Below the pieces are notes generated by a model. The model searched no databases. It was not told the DNA's origin and saw only the letters and a list, made by a program, of their open reading frames with translations. Positions 16,161 through 58,159 of a DNA stretch of 64,000 bases are shown piece after piece. The stretch comes from Marsupella aquatica (Eukaryota; Plantae; Marchantiophyta), in the NCBI GenBank assembly GCA_973895155.1, contig OZ316896.1, forward strand, positions 18,154,754 through 18,218,753. Reading direction: 5' to 3'. Positions within the stretch are counted from its first letter, which is position 1; each line of letters starts with the position of its first letter. A program made the translations under genes and the position numbers.

Positions 16161-18165
16161 ATTTTTTATGTCCAATTACCTGGACACCCCCCTTAGATGG
16201 TCCTTTCCTCCACAAAAGTTATTGGATAATAATGTTGTGCATTAGGACTCAAACCAATTCATTATGGGGATTTTCATGTGACCAAAATGTGCCTGTAATA
16301 TGTGACTGTTAGCAACTAGGACAGTCGCTACTCCAGAGTTTGCACACAATAAAACTAGATGCAATATGTGTTGGTGCCTTTCAAGAATTGTTGGTGCTCA
16401 TTCCAACATAGTTGGCACCCAGTTGACCAGCGGGAGCGTTTTTAAACGGGTCTCAAATCAAACAACCCTCTGAATTAAGTTGGCACAAAGTTGGGTTTTG
16501 GTCAGCATCCTGGACATACACTTCTCACAGCAGCTGGCTGGGAAAAATGCAGAAACAGCAGGTTTGAGACCCCCTAATAGAGTTTTCTGTAAATTGGTAG
16601 GAGGCCCGTGGGTAGTCAGTCATTTGTACTCCAGTTTAGGGTGAGTTCAGGTTCCAACCCAAGATCACTGAGCTCACAATTTGCCTGAGATAACCGCTCC
16701 AACAGTACCTTCACCCTGGACCAGGCTCCCCCATCCTACTTGTTCAATGGAATGCAGGTGTTGATTATTGTCGTAGCAAAACCAATAATGTATTGGTTCC
16801 ACTCATTTCCCCCACTTTTTATGGTTGAAGTGGGTTAGGTTGGACAAATTACAAACCTCCATGTATCCACAAATTAATTGCATGTCAACTTTGGTTAAGC
16901 CCTAAGTAAATTAGTTTTAGGGACAGGTTTTTTTTTCTTTACCAGTTTGGGGAACACTAATGCCACAAACAGAAAGGGAACTGCTTTTAGTAAAACGTGA
17001 TGTAACAATAATGATGCCAAGATACCCAAACCTCATAATTACTCATCACACAACCGCCAACTGGAAGAGAGCATTGCTAGAAAGCAGCAACAAAATGCCA
17101 AAGCCAATACCCATTGAGAGTCAAGGACCATTGCAGGAACCCTATGAAGCAACAGGGTATTGCCATTGGGAATTCGAATCTAAGTGACTGAAAACCCAAA
17201 ACCTGGAAGCCAATAACCATTGATGCAGCTCTCAACCATGGACAGACTGACGACGTCAGGGTCCCTTAAGGGAGCTTTTTAGGAGGACAAAAGTTGACCT
17301 GCACTTCCAAGATTTTAATTACAACCAATTCATATCCAGTGTCTGGTCCATTTTGGCTTTACATGAAATTGGGAGATCACTTGCTACAAGAAATCTCTCC
17401 CATCCTTCATGGACAGGAGTGAGCCATTCAAAATTCTTGTCTGGACAGGTCATTTGACAAAAACATGTTCTTCTAAAAGGACTCACTCCTGTCCTTTCAA
17501 AAAATGTCTTTCACACTTGTGTTTTTATCATTGGTGACCTCTTAATTTTTGTCTGATGTTTATTGCAACCCGTATTGTAAAGGGCCCATAGTGTAATAGA
17601 TTGCACAGTCATGGGGTCCATCAATTAACACTTTTCATTTTGAAGGGTCCATCAAGCATACACCTAAGTTTTCTTTTGGTCCTCTTTGGGTTTTTGTATG
17701 GTATTTTGTTCACCCATTTCAATAAGTTTGTTCTCTTCTCCTTCTCGTGGTGAGAAACAGGAGGGACAAGAGAGTGGACCTTCCCTTTTTTTCTATCTTA
17801 ATACTTTACCAACTTGTGCCTTAAATTGAAATACAGCGAGGAAAATCTTTTCGACTGAAGCAATGTAAATAACAAAGTTTGGGCAACATAAAACTATGCA
17901 TCTCTGCAAGATGGTCTATTGGTCTGCTCAACTCTCGAGAGCAAAGACAGTTTTCGCATCTTGATTTTCTCTTTGTAATTTTGAGTGCATTCATGGAGGA
18001 GCATGCACAGTCGAAGGAGAGTAGTGGGAAGAGATTGTCGAGAGAACTCCACTGAGAAGAAGAGTAGAGCTGCCCTTCCTCCCTGCCCTGCCAGAGTTGG
18101 GCTTCCTTTGAAACGTCTCACGGAATTCCTTCCATTGTTCCTCGAAGCGTTGAAGGTCATCAGCA

Positions 18166-29469: not shown

Positions 29470-29610
29470 AGCATGAACCCTTAAAACCCATAAAAACAAA
29501 TAACCCCCTCAAACCCATAAAAGCAAATAACCCCTTAAACGCATAGAAACCAATGACCCCCCTTAAACGCATAAAAACCAATGACCCCCTTAAACCCATA
29601 AAACCAAAGC
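29470..29610. repeat. Minisatellite of ~30-bp units (CCCCTTAAACCCATAAAAAC...)
   Basis: About 5 degenerate copies read directly. Confidence 0.75.
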
Positions 29611-29930
29611 AGACAATTTGAGAAACCAAAGCAGTATGGACAGTTTTCTGGTTTTGGCGAACAGGTCTCACCTATTCTCTTTTTTGGTGCCAGTATTTTT
29701 TTTCTTTCTATCATGGTGTTGGGGTACCCTCTTTGTTTTGAGTTTGGTCCTTGTCTTTTTTGTTTGTTTTTTGGGTACTTTATTTAGCCATGATTAAAAG
29801 TAAATTGGTCTTGTTTCTCATAAATGCTCTGGTACCGTGGTTTCCAATGAAATTAGAACAGTAACGGACCAAAAGTTGGCAAGACAGTACCATAAAGCCA
29901 GGCCATAAGGAGAAATTAAAGTTACTTATG

Positions 29931-38237: not shown

Positions 38238-40538
38238 AAACCATATTCCGTGCTCTCTTTGAAATGCTGAGCTGCCTCGTATTCAAAACGGTTCGGATGT
38301 GATGATAGCCCGTATTATTCTTCCCACAGAGAGGCAGTTCACTTTCAAATCTTCGCATCTTATCTATGGAGTCCAGCTTGGTAAATTTTACTGAGAATTG
38401 CATCCTGCCTTTCCTGTTCTGATGGCGTCAATGCGAGGTGCCCAAACGTGGCGATTTTCGTCAACAGCAGCGAAGAAGCACATTTCATCAAAATGGATTC
38501 CGAGGCTCCAATGTCTCCGGGTTGCTTCGTCACACTTCACTTACGACATGCACATTGGATCTCGGGGATGTGACGTGGACTTAGAACCTGCTCCTGACTC
38601 GTCACGTGCTAATTTTCAGCATGGGTCGTCTCACAAATCTTTGTTTGTTGCTGTCTCGGTTTGATTGTCATCCTCCTGGAAGTGAAAGTGAATTCAGAAC
38701 TTGGGTGGCTTATTTCTTGAGGATTTGGAACCAATCCTATCCTCATACGTGAGACCCGCATCTTACCCAACAGCCATGTCCTTTCGTTCACCCTCTGAAC
38801 ATGTGTTCGCCCGTTGGTGAAAGGTTGGCATTGCCATGCACTCGGCCCTTGCTGAAGTGTTCCCGTGTGGGTGTCAGCATTTCAAGATTAACAATTGCAA
38901 GAGTACGGTTTACTGATAGGATTGTTATGGACCATACTGTGATCTCAGCATGCTAAAATGTTCGTTCTCTAATAGCCAATGTCAACAGCTGATAGTACAT
39001 GTGGAAAACTTTTCTTGTTTGTGGGACACAAGACGAGATCTTGAGGTACTAGGTTGCAGAATAGAAGGCTGTTTCCAGAAAATTCGAGAGAAGAAATTGG
39101 AGTTTGAAAGTGTCAAATTGACAGTTATTTTCATAATAAAGTAGTCCACCGATGGAAACTCAGTCATAAGAAATGCGCGCACAGGTCCAGGAAGTCCTAG
39201 CAATTGATGTTTTTAAGTGTGACGTTATAGGATTGCACGCCCAAGAAAATGAAGTTTTCAGTGTGCTATCTTCAAATCCAAGGGGGCACGAAGGTACAGA
39301 AGAAGCAGATTAAAGACTTCAGCTGAGAACAAGGCAATTTAATTGAAGCACAACAGAAACAAACTACGAGAGTAGTCCCCTTAGCTGAAGCCAACGGTCG
39401 ATGTATCTGTACATTGCACTGTTCAGCAGAGAAGAAAGTAGAGGGCAAATGGCATATTGCCACAGTCTAGAGTGTCCTGTTCCAAATGCACTGTAAATAC
39501 GAAGAGAAATTCATCGATATAATAATCCAAGTTAGTGAGACTTGGGCCTCCCTGTGACTTTAAGGGGGCCCAACTCCTTACCAGTTGATAAGTACAGGCC
39601 AATTGTGCAGCTTGCTCAAGAGGAAACAAAATTAAAAAAAAGAGACATACTGTCCAGGATAATTTGCATAATGCCCAACTGCAACGTGTCCTTGGTACTT
39701 TGTTTCATTTCAAAATACACAAACTACACTACCATATTCAATGTATTCCAGAATGCACTAAAATATACAAGAAAAATTATACTATCTTGACGTTAGCTAT
39801 CGAAGGGCCTCCTTGCCGCATTTGGTTTTTGTTGGAATAATAAATTTTTCCTTAATATCCTTGCAATGTGCACAAAACAATTCTACCATCTTATAATTCT
39901 AATGCCCTAGATGTAGTAAAGAGAAAATTCCATTCTTGTTAATATAGACCTAGTGTATATCTACCTCAACATGAGGAGAAATTTTGCCATTCCAGTGTGC
40001 ACTTAACACGGGTTTGCATATCATAAGTACAAAAACATGGAATGTGCATTTATCAATAAGAGACTGGTTTAGATCTCAGTGTTAAAATGTGAACATCTGG
40101 TGACTCCTACCTAAATTGTACATCCCTGGCCCAAATGTGATACACTATTCCATCCACATTGAAAGTTGGTCTGACGGCTGACAGAGTAAAAAAAAAGGGA
40201 TTCTTGAACAGAACCCTCCAATTTGCTGCACCTTGTATGGCAGACCTGTGCAACTGCTTTAAGTCCCTGGAATGGATGCAACATGTGGTGAGTCATTGGA
40301 AACCAATTAACTTGTATATCTTCACCTAGAATCCACTTGAAACAAATTTAACCCATCTCCGTGAACAGAGGCAATGGGTTTGAATGTACACAACTTTATT
40401 TTGGTATTGGACCGATGGTTCAGCAAGAGAGTGAGACTAAAGAAATCCTGATTTTTCAAAGGCTCTTATAAGGCTAGTGTATTGCAAGCCAAAAGATTAT
40501 TTCAAGGCTGCTGTCTTCCACCAAACAGAGCACCATGT

Positions 40539-40896
40539 TGTCATGCCGAGGGACAGTGTCTCTTATGCACATCGGCATGTCCCTCTCATGCCCGCTAGGT
40601 ATGTAGTTAGGGTTAGTGTACTACCTGAGTTAGCGACATCTTCTTGTAGCAAGTCTGGGTCGTTCTTGAAGCAAATGTGCTTGTTAGTGTGACGCCAGGA
40701 CTTTGTTTGCTTAGGGCATGTCTTTCTTTGTTGGTTTTTAGTTCTTCTTGAATCGCTGTTGACAGAGCTCAGACAGTGCTCGTCGGTTCCGTACACGGGA
40801 TTCACACAGTGATTCGTTAGATGCTCCCGGCCGATCTTGGCATCCCGCCGGTTTTCGATTCGATTTCAGTACGCTTGTTTCTCTTACGCCTTTTAT
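40539..40896 (+). repeat. Repeat A1 (358 bp), left terminus of the element
   Basis: Matches 56750-57107 with 10 substitutions by my count (~97%) and no indels. Confidence 0.95.
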
Positions 40897-40908
40897 TCAA
40901 GAAGAACT
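40895..40908 (+). promoter_or_regulatory. Putative self-priming primer-binding site
   Basis: ATTCAAGAAGAACT at the end of A1 is the exact reverse complement of AGTTCTTCTTGAAT at 40740-40753. No TGG-type tRNA PBS is present here. Confidence 0.7.
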
Positions 40909-42653
40909 GTGTCGCCGGGTTAGCGGTGAAGGGAAGAAGATCGGAGACGCTATGCTTCTCAATTGCTCGAGATAGTTGACGCTTTTCCGCTGATGCCGGT
41001 GCAATTTCTATGGAAAAACGTTGAGCGATGGGGTGGAAGTTATGGCTTTTGTGTATACACTTAAGTATATACACTTAAGTCAAACAGGACCCCCCCCCTC
41101 CCTCTTTTCCTTTGCGCTTTGCTTTCACGGTTTTTCATTTCCGGCCGCTGCCAACTGCTGCTTCAGCACCTGCCACGACCTTTTTCGGGCCATTTTTTTC
41201 GTTGTTTCTTTTGCCGGCCACGGCTGCCATCCTGCCTCGGTCGCAGCGTGACCACCTCCTCGCTGCCTCGACCACCTCGCGAATACCTCCCGAGTGCATA
41301 GGGCCGCGCGCCCGTTTCTTCCCCTCATTTTCTTTCCCTTCACCTTTCGCCTTACGTTTTAATGACTCTTTCGGGGCAGCGAGTACAAGCCGAGAGCCGA
41401 GAGGAGAAGGCACAGAGGCCTCTGAAGATTTAACGAGGGGAGGGGGAAGCGAAAGGGGGGGCGCGAAACCCTATGCTGCATTAAAGGGGGAGGGGGAGCC
41501 AAAGCATGAGTGCAGGGAGTACATTCCACTCCCTCTCTCGGGAGTCGTCCTGCAGGGCACAAAGCCCACTTTCAGCAGCATTAAAGGGGGAGCGAGAGTG
41601 CCAGGAGAGGGCACGAGGCCCTAAGCAACATTAATGCAGGGGGAGAGGCAACCAAGCATAAGCGACAGCAAGGGGGAGGGGGAGTTGAAGCGCAAGGAGG
41701 GCATGAGGCCCTATGGAGAATTAAAGGGGGGGAGTTACATTCGACTCCTTTCCCTGGAGTCCTGCATTTAAGGAGTGGATTCAGGGGGAGCTCGTAGCCT
41801 CCCTTTTCGGGAGCTCATAAGGACTAAGGAGGGCGTATGGCACGAACTACTATGCAGGGCTGGAGCAATTAAGGCCATTTTTCTTTTCTCTCGCCTCGCC
41901 TTGGGTCCCGTCTTTTTCCCCCGTTCCTCCGTGGTCGCTCGTCCGCTGCGCGAGGGTCTTTCGACTCCCATGAGGGCATGTACATAGGGCACCGCGGCCA
42001 GTCCCCACTACGACCATTTTGCTGCCGACACGCGCCCGGTCTCTTTTCCGTCTTGCTTGCTACTTCCCAGGTCCACATCGGGGCCCGATGTATACACTTA
42101 ACCGGGCCCCATGTTTATACATTTGAAAGGGCCGATGTATACACTTAAGGGGGGCCCCGGTTTACGTTTTTAAGGGCCCATTTTCCGGATTTCTTTGCTG
42201 CCGCCACGTGTCATTTGCATAAAGCTGAGGGCCCGGCATATTCATCAGACAGTCAATCCAGCAAGCACAACACCAGTACAATTGGAGTTTTTAAGGGTCT
42301 TTTCTTTGCCAACGGTTTTTCTGTGTGTTTACACATTCGACACATTTCTGCCTCGCACCGTTTATTTCCTAGCCTTGGGGCTGCCATTTCTTTTTCTTGT
42401 CAGTTTCTTTCCCATTGGCACCCAGGTGAGCATGCAGCATGTTAGCCGACGAGCCAGGAGGTAGCAGCACATCGCCACCAACACCCAGGTACCATTTACG
42501 GAGTGATCCACGACCATTGGTGCCAATTTCAACGACGTCCGCAGGCAGCAGCACCCACACCACGCAATCCTTCTGCTCAATTTGGCGGTCGCTTCACCAC
42601 TAACCCGAAGCCTGCTATCACTTCCTTGCCATTTACCCATTCTGCATTAGTGG

Positions 42654-45190
42654 TTGTTCCAGCTTCACCGACATACAGCATGGATGCTAGCCAGGTATGT
42701 GCACCACGAGGCTTTGGATGTGTATGAGCAGCACTCTCAACGGCTGCTTGCTGTCACACAATTGCCTAACCCTGCCTATGCCAGTGCAATTGCGGCTGCC
42801 TCACAATTGGCATTACAGAATGCCATTGCAGCCCATGCTGCTGCTCCTGCCACTTCCCCTCCTACTCCAGTTCCTACCAATGCGCCAGTTACTCCCACTA
42901 TCTTGGCACAGGCTACATCAGGCATTTCTCCCACCATTGATTCCCCTGCCTTTGCTGATCCAGTGGCTGAGTTTTTCCAGGTTCTTGAATTGGAATTCCC
43001 CATCAAGAGTGCTGACAAAATCATGCAGTTGGCCACCTTGTGAGGCAGCGCGATGAAACCTTGAAGATGATGTATCGCCAGCTTCTCAAGTTGAAGGAGG
43101 ACACCCAGAGCATCACTGACCTGGAAGCTGCTCATCGCTATCTTCACGCATTGGAGGGCACACCAGCTCTCCATTCGCAAGTGTTGTAGCAAGTATTCTC
43201 AGATTTTGGAGATAGCTACACCCTGCTCAATGTCTATGACACTGCTGAGAAACTTGAGTTGGCCCATGCACATTATGAGGCCAGTATTGCGCGTCCACCG
43301 CGATCCAGGTACCAGGCTGCTGCTCCTACAATGCCCACCCCTTCCCGTGTGCCACAGTATGCTTCCAAGACCAAACCAGCACATGCTGCCATCTTGCAAC
43401 TACTATGGAAATCCTAATCACAAGGCTAATGAATGTGATATTGTTGCTGAGGACCTGTCTTGTGATTTTTGCGGGAAAGTGGGCCACTTGGAGGCAGTTT
43501 GTTTTGCCAAATTCCCAGAGCGGAAGCAGCTACGACAGCAGGCCCCTCATCCTGCTCCTGCTTCCACTCCCCCACCAGCTAGGAGGGCTCCTACTGCATC
43601 CACTGCTCCTCCTTCCAGTGGCAAAGCACCCGGTGCTAACAAATTGCCCAAGCAGCCACAGAAGCAACCAGCTCAGAAGGAGGCTCACAACGCACAGGCA
43701 ACTCAACTCCAGTCTCTGACTCATGAGGTTGAGTCCTTACGTGCCCAACTTGCCAACATCAAAGGCAAGTCCACTGCCTTTGCTGGTCCTTCTCAACCGG
43801 CTGGTCACGTGCAACCCATCCCTGGCCCAGGCACCACTAACAATTCAGCACCTCTACCCCGCTCTTTCTATGGCTTGCCATTTGATGCTCATATGGGTGA
43901 GTGTGTGCTATCCTCTGCTCCACAGCCTGGCCTTATAGCAGAATTTTCAGATTCATTCTGCCCTTCCTATTTTGCTTACCAGCAGGCCAGTGCTGCCTCC
44001 CGTATTGCTCCCACACGCCGCATTGTACAGGCTGATGGTCTTGCTACTGGTCCTATGACTAGAGCCAAGGGAGCTCGGGCTGTCATGCCCCAATCTTTTC
44101 AGCCCCTCACACTTGCTGAAGAGCGCACCTTGTTGGCAAGGGGGGAGGGAGCTGCAGCCACATCCATTCCACCACGAGGTGCTGCTGACATTTCACAGGG
44201 AGTTGTTTCTCCTGAGCTGCTTGAGCATTTCACCTCTGGTATGGCACAAAGGATTCTTACAACTCCACTTTTCAGTTGCCATGATTTACAGTTGGATGCT
44301 AGAGCTGTCATCAGAGGGCTAGAGGGTTCACTGCATTCTTCATCAGCCCCGGTGACACCGGTTTTGGAGGTCCAATCTCATGTACATACTGGACCTTCTT
44401 CTTCTCCTTTACATGTTTCCACTAGTTTGGCTGCCCCAGTACCGATTGCTGCTGATTGTGTGACCAGAGCTACACTTGATTCTGGTCATGCTGCTCTATC
44501 TTTCCTGGCTATGTTGTTGAGTGGGAAGACCGTGGCCACTAACTCCCTTCACAAGGTACCTCATCATTTGCCAAAAGTGATGCCTAGTGACAGGACTTTA
44601 GTTTCCACCACCATTGCCATTGTTGACAACAGGAATTCAGCGGTCAAGTTGGAGGGTCACATTCCTCAGGTGGTCATGCTAGACACAGGCGCTCAACCAG
44701 TGATATTGGGCATTCAGTTTGCCAAGAAGATGGGACTGCTGACTGATCATTTACAGCAATCCAGGTGGCACATTCGGACTGCTAGTGGCACTGTAGAGGA
44801 TGTGCTGGGTGAGAGTTCTACTTTACTCACTCTCACTTTTAATGGAGGTACAGATCAGGAATTGCAATTCCCAGTCAGATGTTTGGTTACCAATGCCACT
44901 ACGTATGATGTGCTCATTGGCCAGGAGGCTTTGTTCCCACCAAGTTTTACCATTGACAACTGGCATGAGCACGCATACTACAGAGTTGATTGGCATACGG
45001 ATGGCTCACACTTGGGCTACATTCCACTTGATTTGCATGGTGCCCATACACCTATGGCTCACCACTGTGTGTTGAAAGCAGTGCACACAGCTACCTATGT
45101 CAATCACCCATTGCAGGATTGGATTGAGGAGGATGATGATGAGGTGGCTGCTGCACATGCTGTTGCACGTATAGCAGCACTTTTCCATCA
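42654..45190 (+). pseudogene. Gag (two CCHC zinc knuckles) and aspartic protease of the Gypsy-type element, disrupted
   Basis: Gag-like block LAT../RQRDETLKMMYRQL; knuckles CNYYGNPNHKANEC and CDFCGKVGHLEAVC; protease VVMLDTGAQPVILG...YDVLIG. Frameshifts near 43040, 43385 and 45190, and a TAG at 43187. Confidence 0.85.
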
Positions 45191-45339
45191 GCGTGGATCA
45201 TCAACCAGAGGTGGTACAACGGCTCCAAGCAGCCCATGGACCTTTGGTGGCTGCATTGCACAAATTTGAGGACCTTGGGCAGCACAATGGACAACCAATA
45301 GCCCCAATCTTGAGTGCACCAGTTACATGGACTCCTCCT

Positions 45340-46290
45340 CCGGATGGCCTTACATTGCTTGAGCTTTTTGGTGGCATTTCTACAGGCCTGGAAGCTCTCC
45401 TACAGTCTGGCATGGTGGTGAAGCAGTACATCTACGTGGACATTGATCCAGGTGCAAGGCAAGTGGCTGAATCCCGTCTGCTGGAATTTTCAGAGCGATT
45501 TCCCCAGCAGTTTCCACACAGTGCATGGAAGTCTGCATTTTCTTTCTTTCCTCCAGATATCTAGCTTGTCCAGCACCGGCACTTAACCCTTCTTGGCTCC
45601 CTTGATTTGATCATAGCTGGTTGGGAATGCCAAGGGTTTTCAGCTGCTGGTCACAGTGCTAGACTGCATGATTCTCGTTCTGGCCTTTTCACAACATTGG
45701 TTCAGATTCTCACCTGGGCTCAATCCCTTTATCCTGCTGTTGATTATATCATTGAGAATACTCCATCTCAGTTTGACCAACGTCCACAGGTCAAAGAGGA
45801 TTTTAGTGTGGTCCAGCACTACTTGGGACCACCCCTTCTCATTGATGCAGTGCACTATGGTTCTTATGCACATCGTCTTCGTAACTTTTGGACTAACCTT
45901 GCACCACCTTCCTTGTTGGAGTTAGCTCTTCACCACACATCCAGGGACACTAACCTCACAGTGGACCAGATTTTGGATCCTGACAGTTCTTGCCAACCGG
46001 TTACACGGCAAGAGCCAGCACCTTGGTATCCAACTAATACCATTGGACAGCCCCGTGCTGCTTGGCCTACATTTGTGTCCTTTCCAGGTGCACATGCTTT
46101 TCAGGGTGATGGTCCTGGCCTAGTTTATCGACATTCTACTGGTACATGGGATGAACCTAGTCCTGAGGAGAGAGAACGGGCTATGGGCTTCCAACCCGGT
46201 ACTACAGGTCACACCAAAATCACCAGGCTGGCCAGGAATGCTTCACTTGGCAGGGTAATGGATCTTAATGCTCTCACTTGGCTTCTGGTC
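45340..46290 (+). pseudogene. DNMT3-like C5-cytosine DNA methyltransferase domain within pol, with one in-frame stop
   Basis: Motif I LLELFGGISTG, II YVDID, IV LIIAGWECQGFS, SRSGLF, VI IIENT, VIII AHRLRNFWTN, IX ERERAMGF, X RLARNASLGR. The ORFs at 45193 and 45607 are in the same frame, separated only by TAG 45562-64. Confidence 0.9.
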
Positions 46291-46629
46291 ACTTGCATCC
46301 TTTTTCAGATGTACTTTCATCCAGCATCAGGAGTTCCAGCCCTACCACTCCATGGTGCTGCTACATGGCATCCAGACCAGGTGCACTTACCTCTGTCCAA
46401 CACTCACCACTTCAGTCCAAGTGTTGGGGGGGAGGAGGTCCCTTGTAATGTGGCTGACATTATTTCTGAGTTTCATGGTGTGGATCAGACCAAAGCAACA
46501 GATACAGTAGGCCTTGGAGAGGCCTCATCACCTTATCAGCAACATGCTAGCAGCTTGGACAGTGGAGAGGCTGGCACTTCTGGCTCTTCAAGCACGAGTA
46601 CATTAGGTCCTATTCCTAGTGTTGCCAAC

Positions 46630-47585
46630 TACACATTCATCATGGGCAACCACCTGAGTAAAAGACAGAAGGACCAGCTGCTGAATTTTCTCCTCAAGCA
46701 TGAGAATGTGTTTGCTTTCTCTATGAAGGACTTGGGTAAGTGCAAGACTATGCAGTTCTCCATTGAGTTGGCTGATGAAACACCTATCTTCAGGCGGAGA
46801 CACCGTTTGAGTAAGCATGAGTGGCAGCTGATGGATAAGAGATGCCAAGAGCTCTATGAAGCTGGTCTTATTCAGCCATCTACATCAGATTTTGCAGCAG
46901 CTACAGTGATGCCAGCAAAGAAGGATTCCAGTGGATTGTGGACAGAGAAGCGCATGTGTGGGGACTACAGGCCACTGAACCTGGTCACACCCCAAGACAG
47001 GTATCCCATGCCACGGCCAGAGGAGCTATTTGACAGCATTGGAGACTCAGACATCTTCACTCTTGTGGATCTAAGGCAAGGCTTTAACCAGATTTTGTTG
47101 CTTGCAAAGGACCGCAAGAAAACAGCTTTCCATGGTAGTAACCAACTATGGGAGTGGTTGGTGATGCCATTTGGCTTGAAGAATGCGCCCATATTCTTTC
47201 AAAGAGTCATGGACCAGGTTCTTCAAGGTGCTGAGTTTCTGAAATGCTACATTGATGATGTGTTGGTCCACAACAAAGGATTTGACCAGCATCTACTTGA
47301 CCTTGAGGAGCTATTCATGAGGCTTAAGAAGGTGAACCTAAAGATACACCCCAAGAAGTGTGAATTTGCTGTCAGATCAGTAGTATACCTTGGGCACCGC
47401 ATTCTTCCAAATGGAACCATGGCTCACTGGGCCAAGGTGGTATCCATCTTGGTAATGCCCACTCCTACCGATGTTCACACTTTGAGGAGTTTTATTGGGT
47501 TGTGCAATTACTACCGGATCTACATCAAAGATTTCAGTACCATTGCACACCTATTGTATGCTTTGTTGAAAAAGAATGTGACTTG
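46630..47585 (+). pseudogene. Gypsy-type reverse transcriptase, in frame with the methyltransferase, interrupted by the Copia insertion
   Basis: KRMCGDYRPLN, DRYPMP, VDLRQGFNQI, VMPFGLKNAP, CYIDDVLV, KKCEF, YLGH, LRSFIGLCNYYR. Confidence 0.95.
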
Positions 47586-47929
47586 TGTTAGATATTGCTC
47601 TAGTCTTGTGACTCATGAGCTAACTACAGTTAGGCTAACTCGGGTTAGGACTTAGCTAATGTTAGCGGTAGTGCTATTGTGCATATAGCCAGGGCTGATG
47701 CCAGACCCTGGTGGAACTTAGGCTCATTGTTACGGAGCTAGTTGAGAGATAGGAAGAGCTTGTGTTGTGGATGCTTGGTATGGCCGGTCGGCCTAGAGTG
47801 CAGTAAAGCTCTTGTGTGTTCCCGTGGACGTAGCCTCATGTGGAGGTGAACCACGTATCTCTCTGTGTCGACTCTTGTGCGTTGGATGGTTCATGGGCTT
47901 GCCGTTGCGAATGTCGTCTATGCTCAACA
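47586..47929 (+). repeat. Copia 5' LTR
   Basis: TGTTAGATATT...GCTCAACA, matching 54152-54495. Confidence 0.96.
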
Positions 47930-47931
47930 AG

Positions 47932-47943
47932 TGGTATCAGAGC
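47932..47943 (+). promoter_or_regulatory. Copia primer-binding site (initiator tRNA-Met)
   Basis: TGGTATCAGAGC two bases after the 5' LTR. Confidence 0.92.
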
Positions 47944-49669
47944 ATGCCTGGGAGGTGACGAGGTTTTTTCGTGACAGGTTTTTCCAGCGTTCATTGTCGG
48001 TGGCACATTCGGAGTTTCGTCGCATGAAATTCGAATGTGTGTGGCTGAGCGGATAGGTTAGTGAGAGGGCTTTCTAACGGTGGTTAGAACTCGCTGATCG
48101 GTGTCCGTGGTGCGGAGGAATTGAAGTTTGCGTCGTTCAGATTTTATTCGTGTTCGACGGGATTTTGGGGGAGAGACCAGAGTTTGCGTTGTTCAACAGT
48201 GTGAGTTGTGCGGTGTTCGGGGGATCGCACATTATAGCTTAAGTTGAAGGTTGAAGCGAGCTGGTCATTTCGGTAGCTGGATTGCTGTCGAGTTGTTATC
48301 GAGTGCGTCGTGACGAGTGAAGGAGGCGTTCAGGTTTTTTCACAAGCTATGGAGCTTGTTCTCATCTGAACCGGTTTTCTCTTCGTGCCGTCCGACTCGA
48401 TGGAAGAGACGCGAAGTGCCACGGCTCAACGGTTTGATCGCGGTGAGGCGGTCGTTTTGAGCCCGGGATTGGCACTTGACGCGGAGTGAAGACGTTGCGG
48501 CGGAAGTTTTTACTCTGTTGGAGCTGCAGACCATATCGGTGTAATTCAACAACATTTCTTGTCGGCGGAGTTCACTTTTCTCGTGAGGAACAGTGGCTGA
48601 TTAGGTGAGTAATCGGCATTTGTTAATTAAGGGTCATTTTTTGCCTTTAAGGGGGTTACTTGGGGCCCCTTTTGTGTATACACGAGGTGTATACACACAC
48701 CTCGTACCCGGCCCCCCCGTGACCCCGATCGTCGTCTCCCCCCTCCCCCGCACCCCGTATTTGCAGGCGCGCGGCAGCCCTGCGCAGCGCCGGCCGGCGC
48801 GAAAGTGGCCGCTCAGCTGCTGCTGCCTCTTTCTTTCTTTTTTCGCCCCGCCCTATCCCGCTGCCACGCCTTAGGCGCACACGCCCTCCCTGCCAGCTTG
48901 CGACCTGCCGGTCGCCAAGCCATCCCCCCTGACCGTCATCTTTCGCGACCGCGACCCCGAGTTGCTGCCGGCGCGCGGCTGTGTTAGCCTGCGACCCTGC
49001 GCCCTGCGCCTGAACGCGCCCCTTTTGCTGCCGGTCGCGTACACGGTAATACTAGTACTCGGCCCGGCCATACGCCCTCCCTATACCCTACCTGGCCCGC
49101 CTCGCGTATAGGCGACGCGGATGCGCCTTTGGTTATACCTGTATTTTTAGGATTTAGGGCACTTTGCACCCCTTTAGGGCCATTTTTTGTCTTTTTCTGG
49201 CTGGCTCTTCTATTGACTGTCCCGGGACCGGTGACCCTCCGTTTTAACCGCTCCAACAGGGGGAACGCCCCCTGTGAGACCTGTCGGACTGTGCGGGAAT
49301 ATTCCCGAAAAACAGAGAGCTGTTTTTTGGCCGTCCGACAAAGATTCCGTCCGCCGAACGGTAACTTTTTTGGTTCTTTTTCGGTGAGGACGTTGCCACT
49401 GGAGTTAGCAACGCGGCGCACCGATCACATCGCGATTCCGACGACGGGTTGTACTTGGTATTTCCGTTATTCTCCGAGGTGGTTAAAACGGGGGAGTTTC
49501 CCAAGGTTTTACCCACCCCGACCGAAATTTGAATAACTTTTCCATCGAATTTCGATTTTGATTTCGGCTTTCAGTATTGGACTCCTAGCTTTGTGGGCTA
49601 CGCGGCGGTGTTGAGTTTTGAGTTTTATGAGAAGTTTCGAAAAAAGACGTTTTTTCGTGATTGTTTCAT

Positions 49670-50725
49670 ATGAGTGACTTAGAGGATACTGGAAGAATTG
49701 GCGTCGGTGGAGCTTCAGGATCACGAAGGTCAGATGGGGAGTCTGAGGAGGAGCTGCTACCTTTTGAGGAGGAACAAGTAACACCGGTACGATCACCGGT
49801 GCGGCGTGCAGTGGAGGAAGCTGTACTACTACCAGAGCTGTTGGTAGTTGGGAAGAAGAGGGGGATGGCTAGATTCGGAGGAGTAAAGTTTGAGGTGGAG
49901 AAGTACGATGGTCGTACTGATTACTTGCTGTGGGAGAAGCAAGTGAAGGGTGTTCTTCGGGCCATGGGCTTAGCTCATCTGCTCTCTTCGCGAGAGCAAT
50001 ATGATGGAGAGGAGGAGATCTCAGAAAAGCAGTGGAGACAGGAGCAGGTGATTGCTGTTAATGCAGTGATGCTTTATTTGAAGCCGCACATCATCAAACA
50101 GCTGAATGATTATGCGGATTGCGCATCACTATTCAAGGCTCTAAGAGAGAAGTATTACCGGGAAGATGCGTCAGACCGGCTATACAAGAAGTCTCTCTTG
50201 ATGAACCTCAGGCTCAAGGAAGGGAGCAAGATGCAGGATCACCTGGATGAATTTGACAGTCTAGCGGTGGATCTGTCAAACCTGGGAAAAGGAGTTGAAG
50301 ATGAGGATAAGGCCTTGCTTCTACTAAGCTCCTTACCGCCGTCATATCAGGGCTTGAAATAGGTGCTCTTGTATAGAGATCTGAAGTCCATTTCGTATAA
50401 TGAGGTGGTGAGCTCATTACTGTCTGATGATGCTCAGAAGAAGCTGGGTCAATCACAGACAACATCTTCTTCTGGCACTGCGCTCAATGTGAACAGGGGA
50501 AGAGCAGCGCAGCGCACAAATGGACAGAACAGGTTTAGATCTACATCACGGGGGAGATCTAAATCCAGAGGGAAATCGCAAGAGAGGAAGCCTCTTGCAT
50601 GTTGGAATTGTGGCAAGCCTGGCCACATGAAAAGGGATTGTCGAGTAAAGGTCCCTACTGCCTCTGCTAACGCGGTATCAAGCTCGCATGAGGTAGATTT
50701 ACTCGATGATGATGACATATTGTGA
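49670..50725 (+). pseudogene. Copia gag with a premature TAG at 50360
   Basis: KFEVEKYDGRTDYLLW, LLLSSLPPSY, zinc knuckle CWNCGKPGHMKRDC. The frame continues through the stop. Confidence 0.9.
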
Positions 50726-53700
50726 TGTCAAGGTTATGCTCTCAACGTAGTGTCAAATCCAGGTAGTGATGACTGGATTCTAGATAGTGCATGTACTTTT
50801 CACATTTGCTCTAGGAGAGATTTTTTCAGTTCTTACACGGTTTCCAACGGGTCAGTGTTGATGGGAAATGGAATCCCATGTCAAGTTGTTGGACTTGGAT
50901 CTGTAAGATTTCAGATGTTTGATGGTGCTGTGAGAACGTTGAGGAATGTAAGACATATTCTCAACATGATGAAAAATCTCATTTCACTTGGAGTTTTAGA
51001 AGCAAATGGCCATCAGTGGAGTTCTGCTAATGGTGTCCTTCAGGTTTCAACTGGTACTAAAGTTGTATTGAAGGGAAAGAGACATTGCAATCTATACATT
51101 TTGGAGGGCAGTGTAGTCAGTGATGAAGCCAATGCAACCTTATCTCATGAGGAGACGGCCCGGCTGTGGCACTTCTGTTTGGGCCACATGAGTGAAAAAG
51201 GTTTGGTTATTCTTCAGAAGAAAGGATTACTTTCTAATTTGCAGTCTTGTAAGTTAGAATTTTGTGAGCACTGTGTCCTAGGGAAGCAGCACAGGAAACC
51301 CTTCGGAGTTGGAACTCACACCAGCAAGGAGGTACTTGAGTATGTACATAGTGATGTGTGGGGTCCAGCCCCTACTCCCTCACATTCTGGACGGTTATAC
51401 TATGTCACGTTTATAGACGATTACTCAAGGTATGTGTGGATATACTTTCTACACAATAAGTCTGATGTTTTTGCCATTTTTAAGGAGTGGAAAGCCCAGG
51501 TTGAGAATCAGACTGGTAATAAGGTGAGATATCTTCGATCGGATAACGGCGGTGAATACAGTTCCAGGGAATTTGGAACGTATTGTAAGGAGCAAGGGAT
51601 TACCCGCCATCTCACAACAAGTTATACTCCTCAGCAGAATGGTGTTTCTGAGAGACTCAACCGAACACTATTGGACCGCTCGAGGAGTATGTTGAGTCAA
51701 TCATGCTTACCACATGAGTTTTGGGCTGAAGCTGTTAACACTGCAGCTTATTTGGTAAATTTTTCTCCATCCAGTTCTATTGGATTCAAGACGCCATATG
51801 AAATGAGGTACGGGCGTCCAACAGATTATTCACATCTGAGGATTTTTGGATGTGATGCTTATGTGCTTACACCTTCCCAGCTTCGATCCAAGCTGGAGTC
51901 CAAGTCGAATAAGTGCATTTTCCTTGGCTATCAGAAAGGTGTGAAGGGTTATAGGTTATGGGATCCAGTAACCTGTAAGCTAATTGTCAGTAGAGATGTG
52001 TCCTTTAATGAATCCAGATCATCAAAGGAGGGGGAGAGTTCTCAGGACTCCCATACTGACAAGGGGAAATCTCCCATCCCGGACCGGGTTGAGGGGGAGA
52101 TTAGTCATGATGCAGTTCATGACAGGAAAGATGGAGAAGCTCCGAGCTTGGAGCTGGTTCCTGTGATGGAACAAGAGGAGCAAATTGTTGCTGGGGTACC
52201 TCAAATTCAACCAGTAGCAGCAATAGATCAGCCTGAGTCATCTACTAGAAGAACTTCCAGTCGTTCTACTAGAGCTCCTACCAGGTATGGTCAATGGGCA
52301 GACTCATCTAAGCTAGATGATATTGACATTGCACCTGATGAAGATGATATGGCTTTGATCTTGGAAGAAAGAGAGCCTTCTTCGTATAGTGAGGCTTGTG
52401 CTTCAGAGCAGAAGCATGAGTGGAATGCAGCAATGCAGAGGGAGTTGCAATCTTTGAGTGACAACAAGACATGGGAGCTAGTGGAGCTTCCAAGAGGTCA
52501 GCAAGTGGTGGATAGTAAGTGGATTTACAAGTTGAAGGACAGTCCTTCAGAGGGTGGAGATAAGATCTACAAGGCAAGGCTTGTTGCCAAGGGGTTTACT
52601 CAGGAGAAAGGAGTCGATTACAATGAGGTCTTTTCACCGGTGGCTAAGTATTCCACAATTCGGATCTTGTGTCAGCTTGTTGTGTTTTTCAATCTGGTGA
52701 TGGATCAGATGGATGTTGTTACTGCTTTTCTCTATGGCAACTTGGAAGAGTTGATCTTCATGAGACAGCCACTAGGCTTTATGAAGAAGGGCCAAGAGAA
52801 CTTAGTTTGCAGATTGCTCAAATCCTTGTATGGATTGAAGCAGTCTCCCAGACAGTGGAACAAGCGGTTTGATGATTTCATGCTTGCTCAAGGTTTTACA
52901 AGGATGGTGTATGATCCTTGTGTGTATACGAAATCAGTCAAGAATGATGTATTTGGTTTCATCATTCTGGTGATCTATGTGGATGACATGCTGATTGTGG
53001 CTAAAGATCAATCTGAGGTTGACAGTCTCAAGGCGAAATTGAGTGCTGAATTCAGGATGAAGGATCTTGGTAAGGCCAAGAGGATCTTAGGGATGGAGAT
53101 TTTTAGGAACTCTGATACTGGACAGTTGTGCTTGAGTCAAGGCCAGTATGCGAGGAAAGTACTTGCACGATTCAACATGGAGAACTGTAAGCCAGTGAGT
53201 ATTCCTTTAGCTTCACATTTTAAGTTATCATCGGCTTTCTCTCCTACGGATGCTGTGGAGAAAGGTTTGATGGCTAAGATTCCTTATGAGAAGGCAGTAG
53301 GCAGTCTGATGTATTTGATGACTTGTACTAGGCCTGACTTAGCCCTAGCGATGGGCAAGGTTAGTAGATTCATGTCAAATCCAGGGAAGGTACATTGGGA
53401 AGCTGTGAAATGGATTCTCAGGTATGTGAAGGGAACACAGGACTATGGATTACTATTTGATAACAGATCAAATAGAACATTAGTTGGCTATGTAGATTCT
53501 GACTATGGAGGCTGTCTGGATACAAGGAGATCTACAACTGGGTTTGTATACACTCTTGGAGGAGGATGTATCAGTTGGAAATCTACCTTGCAGAAGTGCA
53601 TATCTCAGTCTACTACAGAAGCAGAGTATGTTGCAGCAGCAGAAGCTGCAAAGGAAGCAATTTGGTTGGATAAGTTGATTGCGGAGATGGGTTTAGAGCA

Positions 53701-53944
53701 TGGAAAAATGACTCTAAACTGTGATAGTCATAGTGCTCTTCACTTGGCTGCTAACCAGGTGATGGATAGCAGGGTGAAGCACATTGATATCAGGTACCAT
53801 TTTATCAGGCAAGCAGTGTCTGATAAAACTTTTGAGCTAGTCAAGATTGATGGAAAGCTCAATCCCGCTGATGCTTTTACCAAAGTGATTCCTTTGGAGA
53901 GTTTCTCAAGACACCGTGCTACTTTGCAGGTTTTGCAGTTGTAG
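50726..53944 (+). CDS. Copia pol (protease, GAG-pre-integrase, integrase, RT, RNase H), open frame
   Basis: WILDSACTFH, VHSDVWGP, LRSDNGGEY, PQQNGVSER, YKARLVAKGF, QMDVVTAFL, YVDDML, YVDSDYG, TEAEY, KHIDIRYHF, NPADAFTK. Confidence 0.95.
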   Translation, partial: CQGYALNVVSNPGSDDWILDSACTFHICSRRDFFSSYTVSNGSVLMGNGIPCQVVGLGSVRFQMFDGAVRTLRNVRHILNMMKNLISLGVLEANGHQWSSANGVLQVSTGTKVVLKGKRHCNLYILEGSVVSDEANATLSHEETARLWHFCLGHMSEKGLVILQKKGLLSNLQSCKLEFCEHCVLGKQHRKPFGVGTHTSKEVLEYVHSDVWGPAPTPSHSGRLYYVTFIDDYSRYVWIYFLHNKSDVFAIFKEWKAQVENQTGNKVRYLRSDNGGEYSSREFGTYCKEQGITRHLTTSYTPQQNGVSERLNRTLLDRSRSMLSQSCLPHEFWAEAVNTAAYLVNFSPSSSIGFKTPYEMRYGRPTDYSHLRIFGCDAYVLTPSQLRSKLESKSNKCIFLGYQKGVKGYRLWDPVTCKLIVSRDVSFNESRSSKEGESSQDSHTDKGKSPIPDRVEGEISHDAVHDRKDGEAPSLELVPVMEQEEQIVAGVPQIQPVAAIDQPESSTRRTSSRSTRAPTRYGQWADSSKLDDIDIAPDEDDMALILEEREPSSYSEACASEQKHEWNAAMQRELQSLSDNKTWELVELPRGQQVVDSKWIYKLKDSPSEGGDKIYKARLVAKGFTQEKGVDYNEVFSPVAKYSTIRILCQLVVFFNLVMDQMDVVTAFLYGNLEELIFMRQPLGFMKKGQENLVCRLLKSLYGLKQSPRQWNKRFDDFMLAQGFTRMVYDPCVYTKSVKNDVFGFIILVIYVDDMLIVAKDQSEVDSLKAKLSAEFRMKDLGKAKRILGMEIFRNSDTGQLCLSQGQYARKVLARFNMENCKPVSIPLASHFKLSSAFSPTDAVEKGLMAKIPYEKAVGSLMYLMTCTRPDLALAMGKVSRFMSNPGKVHWEAVKWILRYVKGTQDYGLLFDNRSNRTLVGYVDSDYGGCLDTRRSTTGFVYTLGGGCISWKSTLQKCISQSTTEAEYVAAAEAAKEAIWLDKLIAEMGLEHGKMTLNCDSHSALHLAANQVMDSRVKHIDIRYHFIRQAVSDKTFELVKIDGKLNPADAFTKVIPLESFSRHRATLQVLQL

Positions 53945-54140
53945 TGCAAGTAGAGTTATTTAGCAATGTGTGACTATTTGTATATGGATTACTCATTCCT
54001 GTTAGGTTACGGCTTAGTTCTAGTTAACCCTTAGTTAACCCTTGTGGTTTTTAGGGGGAGACCTGGTTTGGTGATTGTCTAGAACTTCCCGCTGAGGATT
54101 CCATATGGTAGCATTTAGTCTAGTCCCCAAGACAAGAGTC

Positions 54141-54149
54141 AAGGGGGAG
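54141..54149 (+). promoter_or_regulatory. Copia polypurine tract
   Basis: AAGGGGGAG just before the 3' LTR. Confidence 0.88.
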
Positions 54150-54151
54150 TT

Positions 54152-54495
54152 TGTTAGATATTGCTCTAGTCTTGTGACTCATGAGCTAACTACAGTTAGG
54201 CTAACTCGGGTTAGGACTTAGCTAATGTTAGCGGTAGTGCTATTGTGCATATAGCCAGGGCTGATGCCAGACCCTGGTGGAACTTAGGCTCATTGTTACG
54301 GAGCTAGTTGAGAGATAGGAAGAGCTTGTGTTGTGGATGCTTGGTATGGCCAGTCGGCCTAGAGTGCAGTAAAGCTCTTGTGTGTTCCCGTGTACGTAGC
54401 CTCATGTGGAGGTGAACCACGTATCTCTCTGTGTCGACTCTTGTGCGTTGGATGGTTCATGGGCTTGCCGTTGCGAATGTCGTCTATGCTCAACA
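54152..54495 (+). repeat. Copia 3' LTR
   Basis: Matches 47586-47929 with 2 substitutions. Confidence 0.96.
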
Positions 54496-54500
54496 ACTTG

Positions 54501-56534
54501 GACATGGAGTACAGATGCTGAGGCAGCATTTGCCACTTTGAAGGAGAAGCTCTCAGAATACCCGGTGCTGAGAAGACCTGATTTCAGCAAGGTCTTTGTG
54601 CTACACACAGATTGGAGTGCCCTTGGGATTGGTGCCATTCTGGGCCAGCATGATGAGGAAGGTAAAGAGTACGTCATTACCTATGCATCCAGGAGCAACA
54701 ATCAGGTAGAGAGTCATTATTCTTCTTATGAGGGTGAATGCCTTGCTGTTGTGTGGGCTGTCATACATTATAGGCCCTACCTCTATGGGACCAGGTTTGT
54801 TCTCTACACCGACCACCAGCCCTTGAAGTGGTTGATGACCAACGACAAGCTTACTGGCAAGCTTGCTCGTTGGGCGCTCATACTCCAGGAGTATGATTTT
54901 GAGGTAATTCATAGGCCTGGTGTGACACATCAAAATGCTGACACTATGTCCCGCAGCCCTTTGATTACCTCTGATGATTCCTCAGATGCACGACAAGATT
55001 TTGACCAGGTTTCTATCCTGCCTACATTTAATGCATCGACCTATCTTGCTTTGCTGCCATGCTATGTTGTTGACCAACCTGTGGTGGACATATGGGAGGA
55101 CAGCGACACTCTGAGATTTCTGCAGCATGGGGAGTACCCCACACATGTTACTGCTGCCCAGAGAGACCAAATTCAGCAAAGGTCCAAGCGCTACTTGTGG
55201 AAGGGAGATCATCTCATGCGCTGCTTGCCAGACAGGGAAGTGGTGGTTCCACCTATTCATGAGAGGGTTGGCCTTATCCGTAAGGTACATTCTGAGCTTG
55301 GTCATTTTGGTGTTAAGAGGACTTATAGCCTCTTGGTCCCTCATTATCATTGGAGAGGCATGCATGGCCAGGTTTGAGATGTCATTGCCCGGTGTGAATA
55401 GTGTGATAGGGTGAGGACTTCCTTCACATCTCGACAACCCACACTTCATCCACTCCCTATTCAGGGCATGTTTTATCGCTGGTCATGTGATTTGGTTGGA
55501 GAATTACCCCTCACGTCTCGGGTAATCTCTACATCATGATCATGATAGAGCATTTCTCCAAGTGGATAGAACTTGTGGCATTGCCGGATAAGACCTCCCA
55601 TAGCACCAGCCAGGCATTCCTGCAACAAGTTCTCAGCCGCTTTGGAGCTTGTGCAGAATGTCTCACTGACCAGGGCTCAGAGTTTAGAGGAGAGTTCCAG
55701 GAGTTGCTTGATCAGGCCCTCATTGATCATCGCCAGACATCACGAGATCACCCACAGGCAGATGGCTTGGCAGAGCGCATGGTTCAGACATGCAAGAAGG
55801 GTCTCCGGAAGATTTGCCTCACCAAAAACAAGGAGGATTGGGACCTGGCCTTACCCTACATTGCCATGGGGTATAGGATGTCTAGACATGCATCATTGTC
55901 TAACTTTTCTCCCTACTTCTTGTTGTTTGGTCGTCACCCAGTTCCACCTTCTGCTATTGCTGCTCACATGCTTCAGGTGGTGGACTTGGATTCAACTGTG
56001 ACTTGGTCTGATGTGATCTTTGAGAGGGCTGCCCTATTCAGGAGGGTTATGCCCATGGCCATGGAGAATTTGGCCATTGCACAACACAGGGACACACTGC
56101 ATTATGCACACACACGAGGGGGCACTTTTCAGCCCAAGGTCAGGAAGTTTGATGTGGGAGATTTTGTGTACTTGCAGCGGCAAGCTAACGACACCCTGGA
56201 CACCTCTACCAGTCGTACTATTCTCAGGGTTAAAGCTATTCGACCGTCTGGAGTGCTAGAGTTACAAGGGGCAGATGGGCGCACAATTGCTGACAATGCC
56301 AAGAATTGCGCCCCTTGTCATCTGCCTAACCTAGATCCCACCATTGTGACTTCTACTTGGATTCCACCTATGGATTACCCTTGCAAGGTGTGTTTGCGAA
56401 TTGATGATGCTGACCAGATGCTGCTGTGTGACAATTGCAATGGAGGGTACCATCTTTTCTGCCTTCGGCCTGAATTTACCCAGGTGCCAGAAGGGTTATG
56501 GTTTTGCCCTTCCTGTGCTCCACGTGCTACCTGA
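54501..56534 (+). pseudogene. Gypsy RNase H, H2C2 zinc finger, DDE integrase and C-terminal PHD finger, disrupted
   Basis: LHTDWSALGIGAIL, YSSYEGECLAVVW, YTDHQPL; HSELGHFG...C..C; SCDL / TDQG / GLAERM; PHD CKVC...LLCDNC..GYHLFCL...WFCPSC (56382-56516). Stops at 55375 and 55399 and a frameshift near 55520. Confidence 0.93.
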
Positions 56535-56571
56535 ATTTTCTTCAGCCCTCCTTTTGGCTGTGGTCTGGGGG

Positions 56572-56747
56572 GATACAGAGGTTTACACCTCCACTACGTA
56601 CATAACACTTCATTTGCTTTTTCTTGGCACTTGTGAATGTGATTGAACTTTTTCTATGCATGTTGGTTGCTAGCAGCTTGTACATATGCCTTGCCGGTGA
56701 CAGTATGTTTTCGATACACTATGGCTTCGATACTATATGTCACGACA
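56572..56747 (+). repeat. Repeat B1 (176 bp), preceded by a G-tract
   Basis: Matches 57108-57283 with 6 substitutions (~97%). GGGGGG at 56567-56572. Confidence 0.95.
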
Positions 56748-56749
56748 GC

Positions 56750-57107
56750 TGTCATGCCGAGGGACAATGCCTCTTATGCACATCGGCATGTCCCTCTCAT
56801 GCCCGCTAGGTATGTAGTTAGGGTTAGTGTACTACCTGAGTTAGCGACATGTTCTTGTAGCAAGTCTGGGCCGTTCTTGAAGCAAATGTGCTTGTTAGTG
56901 TGACGCTAGGACTTTGCTTGCTTAGGGCATGTCTTTCTTTGTTGGTTTTTAGTTCTTCTGGAATCGCTGTTGACAGAGCTCAGACAGTGCTCGTCGGTTC
57001 CGTACACGGGATTCACACAGTGATTCGTTAGATGCTCCCGACCGATCTTGGCATCACGCCGGTTTTCGATTTGATTTCAGTACGCTTGTTTCTCTTACGC
57101 CTTTTAT
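56750..57107 (+). repeat. Repeat A2 (358 bp)
   Basis: Second copy of 40539-40896. Confidence 0.95.
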
Positions 57108-57283
57108 GATACAGAGGTTTACACGTCCACTACGTACATACCACTTCATTTGCTTTTTCTTGGCACTTGTGAATGTGATTGGACTTTTTCTATGCATGTT
57201 GGTTGCTAGCAGCTTGCACATATGCCTTGCCGATGACTGTATGTTTTCGATACACTATGGCTTCGATACTATATGTCACGACA
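57108..57283 (+). repeat. Repeat B2 (176 bp), right terminus of the element
   Basis: Second copy of 56572-56747, ending ...CACGACA and followed by ATGT. Confidence 0.95.
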
Positions 57284-58159
57284 ATGTTGTTGAGTTTGAA
57301 AATGATTTTTGGGGGTCCACAACAAAAAGGACATTTTAACTTGAGCGCAACGCCCAATTGTTGTGTTCAAGTTGGATTCTGTGACCCCAGTGCATTTTTT
57401 AAGGATTTCACTTTTTCGCCAAGGTGGCAAATGTAAAGTGTGTCAAGGAGGAGATGCTCAAAAGATTCTGTATTCAATTATTTTCCTGACCGTCAGATCT
57501 CCCTAGATTTAAGGCGGATCATTAGATTCTGGCTAATGGGGCCTGGGATTAGGTGGAACACTGGCTAATGAGACAGCAAAAAAGTAGCGAATTTAGCCAA
57601 AAGTGGCAAAGTATTTTTGGGGAGGTGGAATCTAGCAAATTTTTGCCACTAAAAAAAACACTGACTGTGACCCTGAAGTATTATACATTGAGCACAAAAG
57701 GAGAAAAAATTATGAATCACATAACAACACCAACATTCAAACACAATGCTCATTTTTGAACTCAACGCCTTGCAAATAATCAAAACTCAAATACAACTGT
57801 CTTTGAATGAACCCAGAGATTGCAGCAAAACTCAAATACAATACCCCAGGTGCACTACTCGAACACTGCGCCATGACATTATGTTGGGGGCAGCGGCCGA
57901 AAATTGAAACAGAGTGTCATGATTGGCCTTGTGTTGGGAGAAACCCTCACTATTCGAAAACTGTGCCATGATGTCATGTTTCGGAAGCATGGCGGTGGGA
58001 AAGACTCTAGTGAAACCAATGTTTGGGGAAGACACTAGTGTAATTAAAAGAAAACATACGAGCCTGAATGCAAACATTCTTTCAATGTTAAAAGAAATGA
58101 TGACTCACCCTTTCCATATGCAAATTTTGGTGGGGTCCCACATAACTCTCTAGAGGTTT

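Follow-up and report, generated by a model that had tools for sequence, protein, structure and literature searches.

The analysed stretch of the Marsupella aquatica genome (64,000 nucleotides, hereafter the window) holds a Gypsy-order retrotransposon (positions 40539-57283; the element and all parts described below lie on the forward strand), in which a gag-like region, a protease, a cytosine methyltransferase, a reverse transcriptase (RT), an RNase H, a DDE integrase and a C-terminal PHD finger follow one another. Its ends are framed by a 4-bp target-site duplication (ATGT, 40535-40538 on the left and identically 57284-57287 on the right) and are built of split repeats: repeat A1 (40539-40896, 358 bp, opening the element with TGTCATG) stands on the left, and repeat B1 (56572-56747, 176 bp, ending in CACGACA), a 2-base spacer (56748-56749), repeat A2 (56750-57107; 97.2% identity to A1, 10 differences) and repeat B2 (57108-57283; 96.6% identity to B1, its CACGACA closing the element) stand on the right. 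The spacer lies in the internal CA-NN-TG junction and measures two bases in 12 of the 13 junctions matched. Between the repeats we located the broken gag-like region with its zinc knuckle (42696-43520; no Pfam gag match, but collinear with relatives such as protein P0004 and locus L002), the aspartic protease (44643-44933; PF13975, E 4.2e-7), the methyltransferase (45340-46290), the RT core (46942-47403, in the methyltransferase frame; PF00078, E 9.9e-28), the RNase H (54505-54894; PF17917, E 5.4e-38), the broken integrase zinc finger and DDE core (55252-55745; PF17921, E 4.8e-7, and PF00665, E 9.9e-11) and the PHD finger (56382-56516; PF00628, E 1.4e-11), a module that reportedly also occurs in the green-lineage Gypsy elements REM1 (Chlamydomonas) and Gypsy-7a_cRei. 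The protease-RT-RNase H-integrase order, the DDE integrase, the TG...CA ends and the target duplication are those of Ty3/Gypsy elements, but a pair of identical terminal LTRs is replaced by the split A...BAB repeats. A DIRS, PAT or Ngaro identity was rejected, since a DDE integrase and a protease are present and no tyrosine recombinase was matched in the 10 frames scanned. An exact 4-bp target duplication was recovered in 10 of the 12 loci with both ends (two of them possibly represent one insertion).

The pol region is interrupted between RT and RNase H by a younger, nested Ty1/Copia element (47586-54495; 5-bp duplication ACTTG; Copia gag, integrase and RVT_2), the LTRs of which differ at 2 of 345 positions (99.4% identity) and which contains in-frame stops; its primer site is presumably of the tRNA-Met type. 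Elsewhere in the window we observed an intronless PPR gene of the PLS type (8318-11896, reverse strand; 1192 aa, including E, E+ and DYW domains), whose six near-identical 303-bp repeats (about 87%) indicate recent internal amplification, and short tandem arrays at 1352-1706 (unit of ~52 bp), 15882-16175 (~98 bp), 29478-29635 (~27 bp) and 13014-13123 (~26 bp). The PPR-DYW gene indicates a streptophyte host and, with the neighbouring Copia, led us to reject a bacterial source for the window; as the nearest named relatives of the Gypsy element belong to a liverwort and to mosses, a land plant without seeds is the likely host.

Positions 45340-46290 encode a complete C5 cytosine methyltransferase domain, with motifs I (ELFGGI, 45361), II (YVDID, 45433), IV (AGWECQGFS, 45616, with the Cys codon at 45628), VI (IIENT, 45748), VIII (HRLRNFWTN, 45871), IX (EERERAMGF, 46165) and X (RLARNASLGRVMD, 46225) all located in the linear, not DRM-permuted, order that the original prediction had described. 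Motif I, the motif IV Cys, the EN of motif VI, the RxR of motif VIII and motifs IX and X are, together with a class I SAM-dependent fold, those of C5-methyltransferases, with the exception that motif IV carries Glu-Cys (GWECQ) instead of the Pro-Cys dipeptide. The PF00145 search suggested along with the prediction gave a match of 28.4 bits (E 1.4e-6), above the Pfam cut-off of 22. The annotation as a DNMT3-like C5 cytosine methyltransferase draws on the motifs, the Pfam match, the family profile, the predicted fold and the signature of selection.

A single 696-aa open frame (45565-47655) spans the last three quarters of the methyltransferase and the RT, and the first 74 methyltransferase codons lie in the same frame, upstream of an in-frame stop between motifs II and IV (45562-45564); the domain is thus in frame with RT, as had been claimed. 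Its placement between protease and RT was likewise correct, but in the window copy it is out of frame with the protease, owing to a frameshift near 45181-45192 (where contigs of all four sequencing runs differ in length). The stop is absent from the contigs covering that codon in three of the four runs, and from ~58% of the contig depth in the fourth. Among 58 distinct copies covering codon 45562-45564, 19 (window included) have a stop there, more than at any other position of the domain. RNase H shows a comparable hot spot (22 copies), and the shared methyltransferase stop may reflect a site prone to mutation or else a sub-lineage of defective copies. Because of the stop, the frameshift and the nested Copia, the window copy of the Gypsy element is dead. 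An unbroken methyltransferase was found in just one of 81 DNA copies (the same element being broken elsewhere), which speaks against a family that is still active; open polyproteins are present among the predicted relatives (e.g. P0004 and P0025). Contigs with near-identical DNA from the four sequencing runs cover the methyltransferase in all bins, as they do the protease and RT; no RNA dataset was listed among the runs examined.

The likeness to DNMT3 that had been noticed in the motifs was recovered by sequence, profile and predicted fold, with DNMT3A, 3B and 3C at the top. In a single-sequence search against solved structures DNMT3A/3C/3B were the best matches (E 5.5e-6), followed by HhaI (0.07) and DRM (0.14); with the family profile the respective values were 2.4e-25 for DNMT3, 2e-13 for DRM, 3e-8 for HhaI and 1e-3 for DNMT2, the DRM alignment being confined to the motif I-IV part. 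A structure model based on 79 aligned relatives (pLDDT 93.6, pTM 0.92; it replaced a single-sequence model of pLDDT 36) superimposed best on DNMT3A (Z 28.8, rmsd 2.6 A across 270 residues), ahead of a CpG-specific bacterial enzyme (Z 24.7), M.HhaI (24.2) and DNMT1 (22.8); DRM2 was not among the 50 fold-comparison matches listed, which says nothing against DRM2 likeness. By sequence and predicted fold, the window domain is nearer to DNMT3 than to DRM, DNMT1, DNMT2 or bacterial enzymes, and the label ‘DNMT3-like’ reflects these search and fold ranks, which are not a tree. A DRM identity was rejected, as the motif order is linear and not circularly permuted and the DRM profile match is partial and weaker.

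A search of all 50%-identity clusters returned 1176 matches at E<=0.001 and 171 at E<=1e-30, numbers that, together with the pLDDT of the model, establish that the methyltransferase match is not due to chance. Within the conservation alignment (141 domains of at least 230 residues, drawn from 166 proteins) the catalytic Cys is retained in 139 of 140 members, the motif VI Glu in all 141 and the two motif VIII Arg in 139/141 and 136/140; the SAM-binding motif I is retained as well, and most aligned members share 31-42% identity with the window protein. The residue preceding the catalytic Cys (n=140) is Glu in 84 members, Pro in 43 (including those of Klebsormidium nitens and Marchantia) and another residue in 13. 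Since Glu is the majority state, the GWECQ loop, which had been read correctly from the sequence but taken for an oddity, is normal for the family; we found no paper on the consequence of losing the motif IV Pro. The replacement of PC by EC would suit a non-catalytic DNA- or RNA-binding module kept for structure (in the manner of DNMT3L), or an enzyme acting on the element RNA, as would the behaviour of the one domain of the Klebsormidium element KnitGypsy-Dnmt3 that was tried in yeast and produced no methylation (PMC5890265), a result that its authors call inconclusive because human DNMT3B also failed there. We consider such a role very unlikely, given that the Cys, the Glu and both Arg persist in 97-100% of members despite their low identity to the window protein, that motif I is kept and that DNMT2 ranks far below DNMT3. 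As a separate observation, the methyltransferase query aligns to two stretches of protein P0156.

The methyltransferase domain is under purifying selection. Its dN/dS amounts to 0.088 (window-L002), 0.097 (window-L001) and 0.102 (L001-L002) in pairs near saturation (dS 1 to 2.4), and to 0.091 in the unsaturated pair L002-L004 (dS 0.155), values similar to that of the protease (0.097); pairs involving decayed copies yielded 0.30 to 0.34, for this and likewise for the other domains. The comparison across copies that the original prediction had called for therefore gives a ratio of about 0.1, which is not neutral, and a decayed or neutral insert was rejected in view of the low dN/dS and the retained catalytic residues. 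As the 80 related loci had been picked by their methyltransferase, and are therefore uninformative on the rate of its loss, an RT-only search was run for that purpose. It produced 111 matches, of which 83 were too short upstream and 28 (with 250 or more residues upstream of RT) were counted: 25 carry the domain before RT, in agreement with its expected presence in other copies, one carries it after RNase H and two are without it. A host gene caught by chance in a single copy was rejected on the grounds that relatives carry the domain at the same place.

The domain was found to follow the protease or to precede RT in relatives from Calypogeia fissa (68% identity), Sphagnum magellanicum, Marchantia polymorpha (copies annotated as Mp2g26090 and MARPO_0091s0058), several Closterium strains and Klebsormidium nitens; a Sphagnum compactum fragment also matches the methyltransferase domain. 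The K. nitens protein GAQ93235, in which a protease is followed by the methyltransferase (35% identity to the window over 330 residues), is, we infer, a copy of KnitGypsy-Dnmt3, and the idea of a separate land-plant capture gives way to kinship with this already described charophyte element. A second arrangement (RT-RNase H-methyltransferase-integrase-PHD) accounts for 84 of the 141 domains, and its named members are chlorophytes (Tetrabaena, Monoraphidium). This sister lineage, with the methyltransferase between RNase H and integrase, is large (e.g. proteins P0010, P0014-P0016, P0290 and P0336). We additionally noted a Closterium protein (P0278) in which RT and RNase H are fused with Pfam domains of the ATPase type and which is perhaps a gene-model chimera. 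In the RT tree (87 rows, FastTree, midpoint root, built without the K. nitens RT) the 31 elements with the domain first make up one side of a branch with support 94, i.e. a single change of arrangement as against 25.6 in shuffles. In the domain tree both the window and the K. nitens domain (P0161) fall outside a starred branch of 112 rows, to which all 84 after-RNase-H domains belong, and no starred branch unites the two. The simplest reading is that the domain was captured once, long ago, and changed its place once, the alternative being two captures from one source.

Taken together, these observations point to a Gypsy-borne, DNMT3-like enzyme maintained by selection, and we regard it as reasonably probable that it would be packaged with RT and would methylate the new cDNA before integration, probably at CG sites. 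In intact copies the domain would be translated within one polyprotein, as the open gag-protease-methyltransferase and protease-methyltransferase-RT-integrase relatives suggest, and it would then travel in the particle together with RT, packaging being the established fate of Gypsy pol products. Self-methylation of the cDNA is the likeliest role because a pol domain packaged with RT would meet the new cDNA first. Catalytic activity is suggested by the conserved catalytic residues, and a preference for CG by the DNMT3 class and by SymbioDIRS-Dnmt3. As its most likely benefit, the new copy would arrive marked like host repeat DNA, which would set its chromatin state and limit its own expression.

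The base composition of the element would fit this role: CpG observed/expected in coding DNA is 0.25 in the element versus 0.36 in the nested Copia (CG/GC counts of 104/457 versus 69/186, p 0.007), and CWG is not depleted in the element coding DNA. Against this, the ratio in the L002 family (0.36) equals that of the Copia, and methylation by the host, acting on an element of greater age, would account for the loss of CpG just as well. The A repeat (0.97) and the 5' leader (0.79) are not depleted, a circumstance that speaks against a different scenario, in which the enzyme would act at or after integration alongside the PHD-bearing integrase and methylate the insertion site or the element promoter, thereby restraining copy number. 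The PHD finger is conserved alongside the domain in both lineages, the domain directly precedes the integrase in the chlorophyte-type lineage and a host-friendly slowing of transposition is raised in the discussion of PMC5890265, all of which would be in line with such action; the lineage of the window, however, has the domain before RT and distant from the integrase, and we hold this scenario to be rather unlikely.

The split repeats open a further possibility. No tRNA-type primer site follows A1; instead, a predicted Tf1-like self-primer at the RNA 5' end (40740-40753) has 14 bases complementary to a predicted primer-binding site (40895-40908) that is without the tRNA-type TGG start. This pairing is preserved with different letters in the related locus L002 (5570-5712) and is exact at 13 to 15 of 17 positions in all six elements checked. 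The leader RNA fold of the window is not significant as a whole (z-score -0.65), though its 12-bp end stem does form, and that of L002 scores -4.86. Tf1-type self-priming in place of a tRNA primer is therefore predicted from sequence. A G run immediately 5' of B1 (56567-56572), found in all six elements displayed, is the predicted polypurine tract. The reverse-transcribed LTR would accordingly read B-NN-A, and joining of the cDNA ends, followed by opening of the circle at the first CA-NN-TG junction, would yield the A...BAB layout.

Among 60 distinct copies, all 21 visible 5' ends consist of A alone, and the 29 visible 3' ends comprise 10 BAB, 18 B and one BA. A...B and A...BAB ends are interspersed on the tree and do not differ clearly in age (p 0.06 and 0.16), and the single-B ends may have arisen either from B1-B2 recombination or from the cutting of both junctions. 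They include loci L023, L028, L031, L039, L048, L049, L064 and L068, and in six of the seven single-B loci that contain both ends the 4-bp duplication is exact. B or BA repeats of the same family lie in inverted orientation in or beside other copies (L067 14542-15008, L070 6060-6526, L021 8629-8789, L045 4763-4938), which suggests insertion into kin elements.

On such a circle, the methyltransferase could serve the replication cycle itself by marking which of the two CA-NN-TG junctions the integrase must not cut. The G run right before B1, the predicted self-priming right after A1 and the exact join of A end and B start suit the circle, a permuted ABA...B form was seen in none of the 21 elements with a visible 5' end, and CG dinucleotides are kept at the B end and lost in coding DNA. 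Moreover, split repeats and the domain also coincide in KnitGypsy-Dnmt3, and methyltransferases are carried by DIRS elements with circular intermediates. Nevertheless, the two junctions are identical in sequence, so that a second cue would be needed anyway and strand timing could suffice without methylation, and the B-only 3' ends fit later B1-B2 recombination as well as double-junction cutting; we thus consider junction marking quite unlikely. Were it true, methylation would be a step within the integration cycle and not host mimicry. The broader picture that it would complete is that of an ancient green-plant Gypsy-DNMT3 lineage, whose streptophyte members have the domain before RT and whose chlorophyte members have it after RNase H; such elements would prime their own reverse transcription, form cDNA circles, integrate from the internal CA-NN-TG junction and use an EC-loop DNMT3 to mark the junction to be cut. 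This picture appears improbable in the same measure.

Methylation of the new cDNA remains our preferred reading. Plants defend themselves against transposons mainly by cytosine methylation, so that a family of land-plant elements in which selection preserves an element-borne DNMT3 is relevant to the reasons for capturing a silencing enzyme, which the 2018 paper leaves open (PMC5890265). With the Marchantia polymorpha copies, the family is present in a plant that is amenable to genetics and has published methylomes, and many of the small genes annotated as ‘DNA methylase’ in bryophyte genomes may be fragments of Gypsy-DNMT3 elements. Our literature search, conducted outside subscription journals, theses, Repbase and some supplements, retrieved no description of the element in bryophytes or chlorophytes.

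Several known systems share single traits with the element. Host plant DNMT3 (PpDNMT3a/b and MpDNMT3b; PMC6453930, bioRxiv 10.1101/2021.02.12.428880) and animal DNMT3A/B have the same linear motifs, fold and motif VIII-X signatures, but possess DUF3444 (plants) or PWWP/ADD (animals) and a PC loop, whereas the window domain is without either accessory and sits in a polyprotein. The self-priming Gypsy elements Tf1/Sushi and Tcn1 (PMC6317226) likewise dispense with the tRNA primer, self-priming in the window element being predicted, and differ from it in that its repeats are split and permuted and that no chromodomain was found in it; the words ‘methyltransferase’ and ‘PHD’ are absent from the text of the same paper, which presents REXdb. 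DAM-LTRs/EpiLTRs (bioRxiv 10.64898/2026.05.21.726589) are also LTR elements bearing DNA methyltransferases, although the cytosine enzyme that they carry is a sister of DNMT4 and, unlike that of the window element, is accompanied by an adenine methyltransferase and a chromodomain. The preprint lists Gypsy-DNMT3 apart from these elements, for streptophytes, and a 2025 paper from the same group also places such elements in ‘streptophytes’.

The closest counterparts are those of the 2018 paper. SymbioDIRS-Dnmt3 of Symbiodinium, whose domains carry out de novo CG methylation in yeast (PMC5890265), resembles the window element in having a DNMT3 domain inside pol and split repeats, but is a DIRS element that integrates by a tyrosine recombinase, whereas a DDE integrase and a target duplication of 4 bp characterise the window element. 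In KnitGypsy-Dnmt3 of Klebsormidium nitens, the pol of a Gypsy element includes an unpermuted Dnmt3, the repeats are DIRS-like (A1/A2/B in the authors' account, alongside their Fig. 4c legend) and Ka/Ks is below 0.2 (de Mendoza et al. 2018, PMC5890265). Because an unpermuted Dnmt3 in a Gypsy pol, DIRS-type repeats and purifying selection all recur in the window element, we assign it to the KnitGypsy-Dnmt3 kind; both have an intronless domain located after the protease, and the window element is set apart by its land-plant host, high copy number and EC instead of PC loop. In that paper the capture is treated as specific to the K. nitens lineage, whereas the relatives reported here span bryophytes, Closterium and chlorophytes, which suggests a capture of greater age and wider range than its report from one alga implied.
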